Of a DNA stretch of 32,741 nt, positions 1 through 6,088 are shown in pieces. Below the pieces are notes generated by a model. It saw nothing but the letters and a program-made list of their open reading frames with translations. It made no database searches and was not told the DNA's origin. Numbering within the stretch: the first letter of the stretch is position 1; each line of letters begins with the position of its first letter. The stretch comes from a bacterium (lineage in GTDB: Bacteria > Patescibacteriota > Minisyncoccia > Phycocordibacterales > Phycocordibacteraceae): contig JAJXUR010000001.1 of NCBI GenBank assembly GCA_021782715.1, positions 1 to 32,741 of the forward strand. The letters run 5' to 3'. Position numbers and translations under genes: made by a program.

Positions 1-14
1 GTATCATATAAATT

Positions 15-265
15 ATAGCGGGGTAGAGGAGAGCTGTGTCCCACAGGCGGGAGGGCAGTTGCAAAGCTTCCCGTAAGAAAAGTAGAATACATATAGCGGG
101 GTAGAGGAGAGTTGGTAATCCAAGCGGGAGGGCGAGTGCGAAGCTCTTCAGGTCATGATAGCTATAACATAGCGGGGTAGAGGAGAGCTGTGTCCCACAG
201 GCGGGAGGGCAGTTGCAAAGCTTCCCGTAAGAAAAGTAGAATACATATAGCGGGGTAGAGGAGAG
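15..265 (+). repeat. Tandem array of four copies of the 19-nt block ATAGCGGGGTAGAGGAGAG (2 leader nt plus tRNA-Met positions 1-17). Copies start at 15, 93, 169 and 247, giving a 76-78 nt period. The fourth copy is the real tRNA 5' end.
   Basis: Read directly. Units 15-92 and 169-246 are identical. Unit 93-168 differs after the 19-mer but keeps GCGGGAGGG, which resembles the anticodon-stem 5' strand. Each pseudo-unit replaces the D-arm 3' side with a small hairpin: CTGTG-TCC-CACAG or TTGG-TAAT-CCAA. Confidence 0.9.
213..242 (+). promoter_or_regulatory. Sigma70-like promoter TTGCAA-N18-TAGAAT, ending about 7 nt before tRNA position 1. An identical copy at 59-88 faces pseudo-unit 2.
   Basis: Hexamers and spacing read from the sequence. 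There is no experimental support. Confidence 0.45.
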
Positions 266-319
266 GTACCTCGGGAGGCTCATAACCTCCAGACGCCGGT
301 TCGATTCCGGCCCCCGCAA
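249..319 (+). tRNA. tRNA-Met, anticodon CAT, initiator-like; CCA is not encoded
   Basis: A manual cloverleaf fits. Acceptor is AGCGGGG/CCCCGCA with a 1:72 A.A mismatch. D stem is GAGG/CCTC with A11:T24. Anticodon arm is GGAGG-CTCATAA-CCTCC. Variable loop is 4 nt. T arm is GCCGG-TTCGATT-CCGGC. The 3' end CCGGCCCCCGCAAC matches my memory of E. coli tRNA-fMet. Only 2 of the 3 canonical G:C pairs are present at the base of the anticodon stem. Confidence 0.85.
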
Positions 320-390
320 CACGGTTGTGAGTCAGTGTCAAGTACCGTCCCCCATCAGAAATCTCTGAAATCGGGTACAGTACCGCTAGG
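320..390 (+). repeat. Partial copy (M1) of the module core, directly abutting the tRNA 3' end
   Basis: CACGGTTGTGA ... AGTACCG ... GGGTACAGTACCGCTAGG aligns with the cores at 2289, 3914 and 6018. Confidence 0.6.
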
Positions 391-430
391 CATGAAGCTC
401 CGAAAAATAAAAAAGCGCATGCAACACCAG

Positions 431-2099: not shown

Positions 2100-2135
2100 A
2101 CATACATGATCTGATGTATAAGAATATCTGAGCAT

Positions 2136-2565
2136 GGGCGCGGGAATCGAACTATAGCGAGTAAGGTAAAAAATGGGGATAGGAATCGAACTCTAGCAAA
2201 TACGGGACGAAATCGTCGATTCGATTCGCGCCCCCGCAACAAACGAGCGAAGGCGAGTGCAGTGCCCAGCGCCAGCAGGCGGCGGGTGCACGGTTGTGAC
2301 GCCAGGAACCAGTACCGACAGGCATCAAAATTGGTACTGTACCGCTCAGGGTGTTCACCAGAAAAAGCTCGCAAATACAATGCGAGCTTTTTCTGTTATG
2401 TAGCATTTCCAACATATTTCCAGTTCGATTCCGGCTCTCGTATTCGGTGCAGTTTCGTGTCGCAATCACATCAAAATTGATCTGGTTTTGAGCAGGGGCA
2501 CAGGAATCGAACTGGCGAAAGAAAGTGAATACGCCGGTTCCTGACTTCCCGTCCTCCCGAGGGGT
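2136..2565 (+). repeat. Intergenic repeat module M2: tRNA-fragment head, tRNA 3'-end-like site, 117-nt core, and tail hairpin
   Basis: GGAATCGAAC (reverse complement of a T-loop) occurs at 2143, 2182 and 2503. TCGATTCGATTCGCGCCCCCGCAAC at 2215-2240 resembles the tRNA 3' end. The core at 2289-2405 is 115/117 identical to 3914-4030. Confidence 0.8.
2362..2392 (+). terminator. Intrinsic terminator AAAAAGCTCGCA-loop-TGCGAGCTTTTT
   Basis: 8-bp stem flanked by an A-run and a T-run. It closes the 117-nt core. Confidence 0.8.
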
Positions 2566-2597: not shown

Positions 2598-2626
2598 TTG
2601 ACGATATGCATAATCCATGTTATCTT
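2598..2626 (+). promoter_or_regulatory. Promoter-like TTGACG-N17-(TGt)TATCTT upstream of the 2798 gene
   Basis: Hexamers and an extended -10 TG were read from the sequence. About 170 nt of structured leader follows. Confidence 0.45.
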
Positions 2627-2797
2627 AACGGCAGCTCTCAGGCTCTTTCCATCCCAAGAATCACTCCCCATGAAGCGAGCTTTGTGCGACCTATCTTTTA
2701 CAATTGTTATCGCAAGATAGCTAACTAGGTCGTACGCAGCTCGCCTCATGGGAGGACAGAGTCGCTCACCCGACGGTTCGGGACAAGGGATAACGTC

Positions 2798-3694
2798 ATG
2801 ACGACGATTACTCAAGCTGCACAAGCAACAGCCGGTCAAATCAAGCAGATCAACCGGTTTGGCTCCGACGCCATCGAGAAAGTCCTCGGTGAATTCGGCC
2901 TCGACAACCCTGGCGCTCAACGCGTCATCGAACACGGCGACGAATTCTCCGAAGCTATCCGTATCGCAGTGCTCGCCTCGCTCAAAGACCTGTCGGTCTT
3001 CGACAAGTACAAGAACGAAGAAGTATCCTCGACGTACGGCTACCTCTCTGGCTACAAGAAGCCGAAGAGTATCACCGAGCAGACCAACATCCTCCGTCAG
3101 ATGTTCCCTGGTATTGGCTTTGCCGACGAGAAGCTTGCCGAACGTGAAGTGCCGAAGAATGCCGACAACGGATGGTTCGCCATCCCGAAGTGGCAGTCGC
3201 TCGCACCAACCTATGGTGAAGCCGTCCAACTGGTGCTGAACAAACTCAATGAATCCCGTAACGGTGCGTTCTACAACTACCGCGAAGGTGAACTGGGTCC
3301 TGATCAGCTCCGCCAATCAGCGAAGACGGTAAGTATGTTCCAGAAGCTTGCTGAAGAGCAGAGCAAGTACGACATCCTTGTGGTCGCAGCCCAATTCGGC
3401 ATACGCCACCGTGGTCGCTCCGTTCGTCGTGTGCGTGAGATCCTGCTCGGCAACGAGTTTGGCCTCGGCGCATTTGCCGTCGGCATCATGCTCCTCACGC
3501 ATCCGGAACGTTTTCAGCACGACAATGACCTCTACATCGACTGCGCCGGCGACGAGTTCAAGCCGAGTGACGAGCACGAGTTCTCGCGCGCCCCGATCTG
3601 GAACTTCGACGACGACGAGCTCAAGTTCGACGCGTGCGGGGTCGGCAATGCGGACTTCAACTACGGCTCGGCTTCCGGCTTCCTTCCGCAGTGA
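2798..3694 (+). CDS. Hypothetical protein, 298 aa, no family recognised
   Basis: Long ORF with no predicted TM segments by eye. It is preceded by the M2 promoter and leader. Confidence 0.7.
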   Translation: MTTITQAAQATAGQIKQINRFGSDAIEKVLGEFGLDNPGAQRVIEHGDEFSEAIRIAVLASLKDLSVFDKYKNEEVSSTYGYLSGYKKPKSITEQTNILRQMFPGIGFADEKLAEREVPKNADNGWFAIPKWQSLAPTYGEAVQLVLNKLNESRNGAFYNYREGELGPDQLRQSAKTVSMFQKLAEEQSKYDILVVAAQFGIRHRGRSVRRVREILLGNEFGLGAFAVGIMLLTHPERFQHDNDLYIDCAGDEFKPSDEHEFSRAPIWNFDDDELKFDACGVGNADFNYGSASGFLPQ

Positions 3695-3766
3695 TTCTTG
3701 CTGCTTGAGTTCTTGGGTCTTTTGCAATTTAATTCTTTTGCTTGATCCTTGGGCTCGAAAATTTTC

Positions 3767-3805
3767 GGGGTTATTCACTTGCTGGATAACCCCGATTTCT
3801 TTTTA
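3767..3805 (+). terminator. Intrinsic terminator GGGGTTAT-loop-ATAACCCC followed by a T-rich tract
   Basis: Read directly, 3' of the 2798-3694 gene. Confidence 0.7.
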
Positions 3806-3808
3806 TAA

Positions 3809-4190
3809 TGGGCGTCGGAATCGAACCGCAGCGAGCAAAGTAAAAAATGGGGGCAGGAATCGAACTTGAGTATCTAGGCCGTAGAAAGTCCAGTTCGATT
3901 ATGGACCCGGCAACACGGTTGTGACGCCAGGAACCAGTACCGACAGGCATCAAAACTGGTACTGTACCGCTCAGGGTGTTCACCAGAAAAAGCTCGCAAA
4001 TACCATGCGAGCTTTTTCTGTTATGTAGCAAATACAACAGATATTCAGTTCGATTCCGATTCTCGTATTGAACGACGTTTCGTGTTGCAATCACATCCAA
4101 GTCGGCCTGATTTTAAGCGGGGGGCGCGGGAATCGAACTGGCGAAACTCAGTGTCTACAGCGGTTCCCGATCCCCGTCCTTCCGTGGGTG
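3809..4190 (+). repeat. Intergenic repeat module M3, same architecture as M2
   Basis: GGAATCGAAC occurs at 3817, 3856 and 4129. CAGTTCGATTATGGACCCGGCAAC at 3891-3914 resembles the tRNA 3' end. The core spans 3914-4030 and the tail hairpin spans 4127-4169. Confidence 0.8.
3987..4017 (+). terminator. Intrinsic terminator, copy of 2362-2392 with one change in the loop
   Basis: Read directly. Confidence 0.8.
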
Positions 4191-4217
4191 GCGAGAATAT
4201 TCACCGTTCAACTTATG

Positions 4218-4226
4218 TGGTATACT
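4218..4226 (+). promoter_or_regulatory. Extended -10 element TGgTATACT upstream of the ABC-F gene
   Basis: Same position and form as the TGtTATCTT element in M2. No good -35 is present. Confidence 0.4.
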
Positions 4227-4296
4227 AAACTCACTCCAATGAAGTATTACGCATAAGCTTTTATCAGCTAATCACGGGGCCGACACACGCCCCGGT

Positions 4297-5904
4297 ATGC
4301 GTATGCAAATACTTCTCTCTACAAAAGACATAGGGTTCGAACTTCCGGATAAAACGCTATTTAAAGCGCTTACGTTTCCCCTTTCCAAAGGCGATCGCAT
4401 AGGACTCATTGGAAAGAACGGCGAAGGGAAAACGACGATTCTTAAGATCCTGGCTAAGGTGGCAGAACCAAGCTCTGGGCACGTGAATGTCATCGGGAAA
4501 GTCCATTATGTCCCGCAACTGGATTTCGCGCTTTTCGAGCAGGCTGACACGGTGGTTGTTTTTCTCAAAAGCAAAGGTATCTCATGGCCCCTCGTACAGG
4601 CGTCACTCGGTCGACTCTTTGGTGTGCCGAGTATTACTAAGGATAAAGAAATGCGAGCACTATCTGGAGGCGAGCTTGCCAAGCTGTTGATTGCCATAGC
4701 CGATACGGATAGGCCAGATATCCTCTTGCTCGATGAGCCGACTAACCATCTCGATGTCGAAGGTCTGGAAGTCTTGAAGAACTACCTACTTACGTTTAAG
4801 GGCGCGTTCGTTGTGGTATCTCATGACCCTTTGTTCTTGGATCATGTCGTATCTGCCATTTGGGAGATCGACATGGGAAGCCTGTCCCGCTTTGGTGGCA
4901 ACTACTCGGAGTACCAGGAACAGAAGCGACTAGCCGATGAAGCCCGTGAACGCGATCTTGAAGCAGCAAAGAAAGACGTGAAGAAAGCACGCAGAGCAAT
5001 TGAAGCTCGCGAGACTCGGGTCGTTCGTGCCGCACGTACCGGGAGGCTTGCTAAACTTGAGCCAAGTCGGGACAAAATGGCCGAGGCGCACCGCACCAAC
5101 ATGGCCGAACGGGAGGCGGGGAAACTGAAACGCCGACAAGACCGCATGATGGAAGAGCGACAGCAACACGTCTCGCAATTGGAAAGACCGAAACGAAAGA
5201 CGGCACATCTTGATCTTGCTGTCGGCGCGGAGCGTTCTAAGCGGATGCTCGTTAGCGTGTCTGACGGCCTGCTTGGAGTGGGAAATACGAATCTAATTCA
5301 GGATATCAGTCTGCGTATAGAATTTGGCGACCGCATCGTCTTCACTGGTAAGAATGGCTCGGGGAAGAGCCTCCTCGTTAAGGCACTCATGGGTATGCCA
5401 GGCCCGTTCTCGTTCGAAGGGACAATCAGGCGTGGAGAAAATCTCGATGCGGTGTATATGGATCAGAAATATCAATCTGTTGATCCCGAACTCTCCATTC
5501 TCGAGAATCTTCTGCAGGCGAATCCACACTTAGATGAAAATGCCGCTCGAGGTCAGCTCGGCAAGTTTCTTTTTGGCGTGGATGTGAGCATCAAGAAAAA
5601 GTCTGGGACACTTTCGGGCGGAGAAATCGCTCGTCTTGTCCTTGCGCAGGTTACGTCTAAACCGATTGATCTGCTCGTTCTTGATGAACCTACGAACAAT
5701 CTTGATATTGAAACGCTAGATATTATCGCTGACGCCCTCCGGGATTTTTCAGGTGCGCTAGTAGTTGTATCGCACAACGTTCACTTTCTGTCGCGACTCG
5801 GGATTAATCGTGCATACGTTATTAGTGAAGAGCGATTGAAGGAGATGAAGTTCTTGCCTGAGAACGAAGTTGAATTTTATTCTGAGCTTGTTGCTGCGGA
5901 ATAA
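4297..5904 (+). CDS. ABC-F family ATPase: two ABC domains joined by a charged linker, no TM domain
   Basis: Walker A motifs are GKNGEGKT and GKNGSGKS. LSGGE occurs twice. Walker B motifs are LLLDEPTNHLD and LVLDEPTNNLD. The interdomain linker is rich in K/R/E. Confidence 0.85.
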   Translation: MRMQILLSTKDIGFELPDKTLFKALTFPLSKGDRIGLIGKNGEGKTTILKILAKVAEPSSGHVNVIGKVHYVPQLDFALFEQADTVVVFLKSKGISWPLVQASLGRLFGVPSITKDKEMRALSGGELAKLLIAIADTDRPDILLLDEPTNHLDVEGLEVLKNYLLTFKGAFVVVSHDPLFLDHVVSAIWEIDMGSLSRFGGNYSEYQEQKRLADEARERDLEAAKKDVKKARRAIEARETRVVRAARTGRLAKLEPSRDKMAEAHRTNMAEREAGKLKRRQDRMMEERQQHVSQLERPKRKTAHLDLAVGAERSKRMLVSVSDGLLGVGNTNLIQDISLRIEFGDRIVFTGKNGSGKSLLVKALMGMPGPFSFEGTIRRGENLDAVYMDQKYQSVDPELSILENLLQANPHLDENAARGQLGKFLFGVDVSIKKKSGTLSGGEIARLVLAQVTSKPIDLLVLDEPTNNLDIETLDIIADALRDFSGALVVVSHNVHFLSRLGINRAYVISEERLKEMKFLPENEVEFYSELVAAE

Positions 5905-5907
5905 AGA

Positions 5908-6047
5908 AAAAATGGGGGCAGGAATCGAACTGTAGCGAGCAAAGCAAAAAATGGGAGCAGGGATCGAACTCTAGCAAATACGGGGCGAAATCGTCGATTC
6001 GATTATGGACCCAGCAACACGGTTGTGACGCCAGGAACCAGTACCGG
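5908..6047 (+). repeat. Intergenic repeat module M4: head plus the first 30 nt of the core
   Basis: GGAATCGAAC occurs at 5921 and the variant GGGATCGAAC at 5960. The head is near-identical to the M2 head (CTCTAGCAAATACGGGrCGAAATCGTCGATTCGATT). The site and core start are near-identical to M3. Confidence 0.75.
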
Positions 6048-6088
6048 CTCGCCTAAAGGTCAGTACGGTATCGGCAGGCATCACGTAT

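Follow-up and report, generated by a model that had tools for sequence, protein, structure and literature searches.

Introduction

The ABC-F gene vmlR of Bacillus subtilis is preceded by an upstream open reading frame (uORF) of three codons (MIN, with the variants MDN, MDK, and MRK between species), and ribosomes that have been arrested on this uORF by initiation-blocking lincosamides or pleuromutilins remodel the leader (PMC9226507). In the case of msrD, the leader ORF msrDL has six codons (MYLIFM), the ribosome stalls when UAA occupies the A site, and UAA is the prevailing stop codon of the ORF variants (PMC10314930). In the present work, we analyzed the leaders of two genes in a stretch of 32,741 nucleotides (positions 1 to 32,741 of contig JAJXUR010000001.1, assembly GCA_021782715.1; the whole stretch is hereafter called the window) from a Kaiserbacteria-type Patescibacterium: one of the genes encodes an ABC-F ATPase and the other a protein of 298 aa. 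An initial annotation of the window had described both leaders as homologous and had suggested that they may be leader-peptide attenuators, supplied by repeat modules, that might answer the same ribosome-stalling signal. Our results favor, with a probability of about 0.6, another reading, i.e., that the two leaders are separate devices of separate cargo genes: a translational attenuator before the ABC-F gene, and a structured RNA in the 5′-untranslated region (5′-UTR) of the 298-aa gene.

The ABC-F leader resembles that of vmlR in that an ABC-F gene lies behind a tiny uORF of variable sequence, which is embedded in a leader helix. In vmlR, however, a Shine–Dalgarno sequence (SD) precedes the uORF and control is by transcription attenuation, with an intrinsic terminator and pausing by NusG, whereas the leader in the window has neither an SD nor a terminator, its uORF is at the 5′ end, and the start codon itself would be masked directly; the two sequences are unrelated. 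With msrDL it shares a short leader ORF before an ABC-F gene, here of five codons with UAA in 11 of 11 leaders, but msrDL has a terminator, a strong ribosome-binding site, and a hydrophobic macrolide-sensing peptide, to which the MKxxA peptides described below are unrelated.

In the attenuators of ermC and cat/cmlA, which work without a terminator, the leader ORF overlaps one strand of a helix in which the initiation region of the resistance gene is hidden, and a drug-stalled ribosome frees this region. The leader ORFs of erm genes have 9–19 codons and those of cat genes have 9, they possess an SD of their own, and the element hidden is an SD. The ABC-F leader shows the same plan in prediction, with a leader ORF that overlaps a helix over the downstream initiation region and with no terminator, but the masked element consists of the 7 nt upstream of an AUG that has no SD, and the ORF has only five codons.

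Structured 5′-UTRs can also act as operators or stabilizers, as in the ribosomal-protein leaders, the RNase III-processed leaders of rnc and pnp, and the 5′ stem-loop of ompA. The leader of the 298-aa gene, with its long, stable, promoter-proximal helix, conserved base, and subsequent SD, has a layout typical of leaders recognized by proteins or nucleases. It differs from these in having no known partner protein and no match in Rfam 15, and it serves several families that have so far been found only in Patescibacteria.

Results

A five-codon uORF is conserved in ABC-F leaders

The ABC-F leader (positions 4233–4302) was compared with those of orthologues whose proteins are 56–84% identical, giving a set of 11 orthologous leaders including that of the window. 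The results showed that all 11 contain a uORF of exactly five codons ending with Ala-TAA. The peptides are MKYYA (window and L182), MKYRA (L008 and L187), MKYCA (L184 and L185), MKHNA (L188/L018), MKHCA (L020), MKTYA (L190), MKNSA (L269), and MNNNA (L270). The motif TGnTAnnnT lies 11–12 nt upstream of the uORF ATG in nine of the leaders, and the placement of the −10 box is ambiguous in the other two (L269 and L270). The uORF is followed by a small AGCU..AGCU hairpin, a G+C-rich hairpin, and UAYGCGY-AUG, in this order. On the 5′ side of the leader, we found a module, a membrane-protein gene, CYTH, DUF2268, APH, or a ParE/YafQ-type toxin gene, depending on the locus.

Codons 2 and 5 of the uORF change almost only synonymously (AAG/AAA and GCA/GCG, with AAC as the one exception), and the indels are found outside the uORF, e.g., right behind the stop codon in L188. 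The A and U of its AUG are unpaired, yet invariant in 11/11 leaders. There is no SD before the uORF, and thus no ribosome-binding site of the usual kind; an extended −10 box is present instead. The initial annotation had seen a weakness in this lack; the observation was correct for the ABC-F uORF, but the objection is a weak one, as only ~12% of the genes in this genome have an SD. The ABC-F ATG has no SD either. A second −10 box located 7 nt before the uORF ATG, which would make the uORF truly leaderless, was rejected: it reads TAAACT in the window and TACATT in L182 and is not kept in the other leaders.

A covarying helix covers the translation start of the ABC-F gene

The ABC-F reading frame of the window begins with two ATG codons (4297 and 4303). 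It is the second that is conserved; L020 has ACG in place of the first, which L019, L190, L269, and L270 lack altogether, and the first ATG sits in the leader helix. Since the first ATG is thus replaced or missing in orthologues, the true ABC-F start is probably at 4303 and not at 4297.

Folding of the stretch 4233–4315 gave −28.2 kcal/mol (z −4.4 vs shuffles). An analysis of the 11 sequences with RNAalifold revealed a core helix, P1b, in which 98.7% of the cells are paired and two pairs covary (AU:5 GC:4 GU:2 and AU:7 GC:3). The 5′ strand of P1b, RCGCRUA, consists of a part of codon 4, codon 5, and the UA of the stop codon of the uORF, and the helix covers the positions −7 to −1 of the ABC-F ATG, i.e., it lies over the initiation site in the manner of known attenuators. 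The G+C-rich hairpin inside P1b occurs in the variants CGGGGC/GCCCCG, GGGAC/GUCCC, GAGGCG/CGCCUC, and AGGGAG/CUCUCU. An outer helix, P1a, is not kept in L190, L269, and L270. For the whole structure, the covariation was 0.319 as compared with 0.197 in shuffled alignments and was reached by 0 of 500 of these, and the fraction of paired cells fell from 94% to 20–66% when the pairing partners were slid against each other. In the nine closer leaders, where P1a is included, 93.9% of the cells are paired over 22 pairs; six pairs show compensatory changes vs 1.2 in shuffles (0/500). The claim that the ABC-F gene is under leader-peptide attenuation was thereby strengthened, with a mini-ORF that is kept in all 11 homologous leaders and overlaps a covarying helix over the ABC-F start.

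The ABC-F protein is ARE-like

The ABC-F protein (533–535 aa) matched Pfam ABC_tran twice and ABC_tran_Xtn at residues 189–255. In the translation, two ABC domains are joined by a long linker (approximately residues 190–300), which, together with the lack of a membrane domain, is the two-domain arrangement of the antibiotic-resistance (ARE) ABC-F proteins. The NCBIfam model NF000355, 'ribosomal protection-like ABC-F family protein', aligned in a single stretch over residues 7–503 and scored above its curated cut-off (Table 1), whereas the housekeeping models EttA and Uup aligned in pieces only and far below their cut-offs. The models of Vga and Msr aligned end to end, yet far below theirs. The full-length matches in a search of PDB sequences were VgaA-LC, VmlR/ExpZ, and PoxtA, although by bit score they cannot be told apart from Uup/EttA. 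On the basis of these comparisons, we call the protein ARE-like.

DNA comprising the leader and the start of the ABC-F gene was present in four of 222 genomes of the genus, and close orthologues in three of 401 genomes sampled from the order. The ABC-F gene is an accessory gene with a patchy occurrence, and it resides in a low-GC island. In metagenome contigs, orthologues adjoin genes of an APH-type phosphotransferase and a GNAT acetyltransferase (L188 2339–3102; L190 1–688 and 2366–2770). The closest named orthologue, with 78% identity, comes from Ca. Kaiserbacteria (L022, JACPGH010000003.1, 1–1500). It is without the first ~60 codons and the leader; the upstream DNA is unrelated and may be an insertion, and no leader was obtained from this locus.

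Proposed working of the ABC-F leader

A scan of the window for terminator-like sites found none in either leader, and transcription attenuation was thus rejected for both. Since the ABC-F leader lacks a terminator, control would act on translation, and since the ABC-F ATG lacks an SD, access to the start region should decide initiation. Our proposal is that transcription from the extended −10 box at 4218–4226 would yield an mRNA in which the five-codon ORF begins after ~6 nt. The last codons of the uORF and its stop codon are predicted to pair with the 7 nt immediately 5′ of the ATG at 4303, and in close relatives the first codons would pair with codons 3–5 of the ABC-F gene. In the free mRNA, the SD-less ABC-F start would be buried. 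A ribosome on the mini-ORF would melt P1b and expose the start; if this ribosome were held by a large-subunit drug, either at initiation or at the UAA stop, the start would stay open and ABC-F synthesis would be switched on. Such a mechanism would be a translational attenuation of the ermC/cat type acting on an ARE-like ABC-F gene. The leader is, judged from its sequence, a good candidate for a leader-peptide translational attenuator that is SD-less, located at the 5′ end, five codons in length, and capable of masking the start codon directly. In a model of nine leaders, the mean probability of the start region being unpaired rose from 0.37 to 0.60 when the uORF region was held single-stranded.

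Several observations weigh against this proposal. The gain in accessibility just given is modest and is a model result. The leaders in the set of 11 are relatives of one another, and some hardly differ (those of the window and L182). The −10 box is found at 11–12 nt and not at 6–8 nt from the uORF ATG, which implies an SD-less 5′-UTR of ~5–6 nt. Both GCR-UAA and a part of AUGAAG are constrained by pairing as well, so that the conservation of the uORF is no clean proof of coding. The score of the protein with NF000355 is barely above the cut-off, and no model of a named ARE subfamily (Vga, Msr, Lsa, Sal, OptrA, CplR, and others) was reached (e.g., Vga 286 vs 725 and Msr 272 vs 680; all far below). 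Finally, some ABC-F genes do without the leader: that in L019/L268 starts 8 nt after a NUDIX gene, that in L186 follows a methyltransferase gene and has retained no more than the 3′ half of the hairpin, and those in L192 (55% identity) and L021 (46%) have their ATG 8–9 nt behind an extended −10 box. The leader thus appears to be an add-on that was lost or never gained in some lineages.

The possibility exists that the ABC-F leader works by RNA structure alone, the uORF not being translated and the helix damping or gating ABC-F translation until it is opened by temperature, by an RNA or protein in trans, or by processing. Most of the conserved nucleotides of the uORF are indeed also base-paired, there is no SD, and a 5′-UTR of ~6 nt is not strictly leaderless. 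On the other side, the A and U of the AUG are invariant although unpaired, the length of five codons is fixed in spite of indels directly behind the stop codon (L188) and elsewhere, and Lys2 and Ala5 change synonymously. Moreover, very short uORFs are established sensors for this class of genes (vmlR and MsrDL). We therefore consider regulation by structure alone unlikely.

The 298-aa gene has a conserved structured 5′-UTR

The 5′-UTR of the 298-aa gene is ~165 nt in length. Its leader (positions 2662–2797) was aligned by MAFFT with those of homologues from the genus and the class, 20 leaders altogether. They follow one plan: a helix base 5′-AUGAGRYGAGC...GCUCRYCUCAU-3′, a variable apex of ~10 to >120 nt, a GAG(G)..GYCGY linker, a small hairpin, AGGAG(G), and the ATG. 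The window sequence 2633–2815 folds at −70.7 kcal/mol (z −5.3 vs shuffles). In the main helix, P1, RNAalifold recognized 23 pairs in the 20 leaders, 14 of them with compensatory changes, and 92.6% of the cells are paired. The covariation amounted to 0.504 vs 0.207 in shuffles and was reached by 0/500, and slid partners gave 35–49% paired cells. Many P1 pairs are G-U on the mRNA strand, and the covariance model built from the aligned leaders, R1, scored 83 bits for the sense strand as compared with 37 bits for the other strand; P1 is therefore an RNA structure on the mRNA strand and not a DNA palindrome.

The start codon of the ORF at 2670–2720 lies inside this stem, with the U of the ATG paired with A (UA:19, CG:1). 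It is replaced by ACG in L202 (with a compensating CGT), ATA in L197, CTG in L213, and TTG in L221 and L228, and the length of the ORF differs among the leaders, i.e., this gene has no conserved uORF. Thus, the 16-aa product of the ORF was rejected as a leader peptide, with a start lost in five of 20 relatives, a variable length, and a stem that covaries. What looks like a mini-ORF is a side effect of the CAUG within this helix.

Between the promoter and P1, at 2633–2665 in the window and in many of the related leaders, there are GUUCUUUGA/CUCCUUUC-like and AUCACU(CC) strings, which resemble the 3′ end of 16S rRNA and are in this sense anti-SD-like. The helix of the window is extended by pairing of CUCCCC with the GGGAGG that follows P1. 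As for masking of the SD by the CCUC of the 3′ arm, the mean probability of the SD being unpaired was 0.56 with P1 and 0.42 when the 5′ arm was blocked, and the direction of the effect was inconsistent between sequences.

The ~23-bp helix, its sequence-conserved base and variable apex, and the strong SD in an SD-poor genome have led us to suggest, with low confidence, that the leader may be a cis-acting operator or stability element that is recognized by a protein or by an enzyme of the RNase III type and sets the expression of this protein family; this mode of action is a guess. A small-molecule riboswitch might be proposed as well, in view of a conserved, covarying 5′-UTR structure which precedes several gene families across the class and has conserved unpaired linker nucleotides and an SD nearby. 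However, we found only a single long hairpin, whose apex varies freely, and a second, tiny one, but neither a junction of several helices nor a pseudoknot. No metabolic role is known for the genes downstream, and the accessibility of the SD with and without P1 showed no consistent switch. A riboswitch is thus quite unlikely.

Distribution of the element and the protein family behind it

R1 detected a single copy in this genome. Among 48 loci of homologues, the element lies directly before the gene in 22, three of which were outside the training set, and 16 genomes in a class-wide sample of 151 contain it. In this class sample, six of the matches precede genes of the 298-aa family, whereas eight precede other ORFs of 255–290 aa (L248, L251, L252, L255, L256, L258, L260, and L261) that had no Pfam match and were not detected by the profile of the family. 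Distant homology between these ORFs and the 298-aa family was tried and rejected: the C-termini look alike by eye (THPERF..YIDCAGDEF vs TGERLF..YARCSD), but hhalign gave a probability of 7.9%. The 298-aa leader is an uncatalogued structured RNA motif that is unrelated to the ABC-F leader.

With 2285 proteins at E≤1e-5 (1695 cluster representatives at E≤0.001), the 298-aa family is very large. Members that are 65–77% identical occur across many Patescibacteria. The protein had no match in Pfam, NCBIfam, PHROGs, or PADLOC, and none in a profile search of PDB sequences. The first AlphaFold model was too poor for use (pLDDT 48), and a wider alignment yielded a usable one (pLDDT 77, pTM 0.72), for which Foldseek found no match at E≤0.001 in PDB or BFVD. 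According to this model, the protein may have a new fold.

Start sites in the genome and ABC-F genes without the leader

An SD-like motif was found in 46 of the 382 long ORFs of the genome (~12%). Extended −10 boxes (TGNTANNNT) pile up 6–8 nt upstream of ATG codons, in 32 genes; the sequences at 4218–4239 of the window and 1832–1848 of L003 are examples. Starts close to the 5′ end of the mRNA are therefore normal in this genome, which points to leaderless mRNAs as a major route of expression. Another mode of ribosome loading is thus plausible for the SD-less uORF.

These features could also mean that the mini-ORF of the ABC-F leader is a constitutive ribosome loader, which unwinds the leader and lets ribosomes re-initiate 46 nt further downstream, at the SD-less ATG of the ABC-F gene, with no drug being sensed. 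The genome is poor in SDs and has promoter-proximal starts, the uORF is at the 5′ end of the mRNA, and the ABC-F start has no SD. A loader would not be needed, however, where the ABC-F gene stands directly behind its promoter, as in L192 and L021, and a conserved start-masking helix together with a stable hairpin would be costly for constitutive expression. The absence of the leader from some orthologues fits a regulatory module and speaks against a simple role in loading. Overall, a loader appears very unlikely, and translational attenuation is the reading that we retain for the ABC-F leader.

The two leaders do not share an origin with each other or with the modules

The boxes, ORFs, and hairpin on which the proposal of homologous leaders had been built were all confirmed at their positions: TGtTATCTT at 2618–2626, TGgTATACT at 4218–4226, the ORFs at 2670–2720 (MKRALCDLSFTIVIAR and a stop codon) and 4239–4256 (MKYYA and a stop codon), and CGGGGC-N8-GCCCCG at 4275–4294, which ends 2 nt upstream of the ATG at 4297. 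When the sequences from the ends of the modules to the start codons were compared, the best local alignment consisted of the TCACT(C)CCnATGAAG string alone. Its score of 18 was matched by 315 of 2000 dinucleotide shuffles, and the leaders thus gave no sign of homology. In contrast, the modules themselves (2134–2565 vs 3808–4190) aligned with a score of 345, and their homology stops before the promoters. The modules had been said to end in a promoter; homologues of each gene elsewhere have the same promoter and leader without any module, including TTGACN-17-TAnnnT before the homologous leaders of the 298-aa type. The promoters and leaders therefore belong to the cargo genes.

A hairpin had been reported to follow each mini-ORF, which holds for the leader behind module M3 but not for that behind M2, where the ATG of the mini-ORF sits inside the stem. 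Nor does the 298-aa gene lie behind the same type of leader, since its mini-ORF is not kept among relatives and the leader is a different structured RNA. There was nothing that ties the two genes together, and the idea of a response to one common signal could not be upheld. It is extremely unlikely that the modules have supplied both genes with homologous leader-peptide attenuators that answer one ribosome-stalling signal: both leaders have an extended −10 box, the TCACTCC..ATGAAG string, a short ORF, and stable hairpins, but the string is at chance level, the promoters and leaders move with the genes and not with the modules, and the ORF behind M2 keeps neither its start nor its length, while its stem covaries.

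In a search of the window against Rfam 15 at gathering score, tRNA was the sole match, and neither leader was matched. Permissive Rfam scans gave only chance-level matches for 2560–2830 (E≥0.31) and none for 4190–4340. In the literature, we found no paper on ABC-F leaders or on the RNA motif of the 298-aa type in Patescibacteria. Three layers that looked like one repeat can now be separated: the integration modules, the promoters and leaders of the cargo, and the genes.

Table 1. Coordinates in the window of the leaders, the genes behind them, and the adjacent modules.
Feature	Position	Strand	Description
Extended −10 box of the ABC-F unit	4218..4226	+	TGgTATACT; putative transcription start ~4233
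uORF of the ABC-F leader	4239..4256	+	Five codons, MKYYA + TAA; kept in 11/11 orthologous leaders
Outer helix P1a	4241..4315	+	GAAGUA 4241–4246 with UACUUC 4310–4315; closer orthologues only
Core helix P1b	4249..4302	+	ACGCAUA 4249–4255 pairs with UAUGCGU 4296–4302, 7 nt before ATG 4303
AGC/GCU helix inside P1b	4256–4258 with 4267–4269	+	
Hairpin P3 inside P1b	4275–4280 with 4289–4294	+	Covaries at 4 pairs
ABC-F ATPase, ARE-like	4303..5904	+	NF000355 392.5 bits vs cut-off 380; two ABC_tran domains; in-frame ATG 4297 two codons upstream
Promoter of the 298-aa unit	2598..2626	+	TTGACG 2598–2603, 17 nt, TGtTATCTT 2618–2626; from promoter scan
P1 of the 5′-UTR RNA element	2671..2748	+	2671–2693 pairs with 2726–2748; variable apex 2694–2725; contains ORF 2670–2720
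3′ part of the element	2749..2797	+	GGGAGG..GUCGC linker; hairpin CCCGA 2769–2773/UCGGG 2778–2782; SD-like AAGGGA 2785–2790
298-aa protein	2798..3694	+	Large Patescibacteria family; own terminator 3765–3795
Module M2	2134..2565	+	Repeat with pieces like the tRNA 3′ end and a terminator hairpin; direct repeat with 3808–4190 and 5912–6075; outside both leaders
Module M3	3808..4190	+	Repeat of M2; context, outside both leaders

Genomic context

The assembly comprises 461 kb and is 66% complete, and the window corresponds to contig 12. A tRNA-Met gene at 249–320 is followed by ~12.6 kb with a G+C content of 49%, as compared with ~60% genome-wide. The repeat family has copies at 2134–2565 and 3808–4190 and a partial copy at 5912–6075; the modules are ~430 nt in length, and the 3′ end of the tRNA recurs in them. 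In another species (G015) and on contig C31 of this assembly, the same tRNA-Met is likewise followed by this module. The 298-aa and ABC-F genes are cargo between the repeat modules of a tRNA-Met-anchored island.

Contig C31 (L003 1366–1850 vs window 1–400) also has this tRNA-Met, but a single 77-nt repeat precedes it there, as against three in the window. The tRNA-Met of C31 is directly followed by a module and a peptidase S51 paralogue, the ATG of which lies 6 nt past TGaTATCAT. The copy is either the true left flank of the island or a strain variant. A peptidase S51 gene resembling that at 1085–1720 of the window is located 3′ of the ABC-F gene in L185 and L186, and the same cargo genes seem to have been shuffled between loci.

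Discussion

Whether both elements represent new regulatory devices of Patescibacteria, i.e., an SD-independent, 5′-loaded MKxxA antibiotic sensor and a new class of cis-regulatory RNA with a P1 hairpin, is a tentative proposition, which we hold to be possible and not probable. If it were true, the MKxxA sensor would gate an ARE-like ABC-F gene purely in translation, and ultra-small episymbionts would sense ribosome-targeting drugs. The P1 leader would in that case be a riboswitch or an autoregulatory operator common to several large unannotated families, and it would define a hidden regulon.

Among environmental episymbionts, the analysis points to an ARE-like gene that is accessory and located on an island. 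It also provides a motif that is missing from Rfam, shows strong covariation, and precedes an unannotated family of more than 2000 members, and which can serve as a handle on the role of that family. If the model of the ABC-F leader is correct, leader-peptide control of ribosome-protection genes would extend to the Candidate Phyla Radiation, as well as to SD-less mRNAs and to a minimal sensor of five codons, and the leader would offer a compact and testable model for the translational switches of SD-poor, leaderless-prone bacteria.

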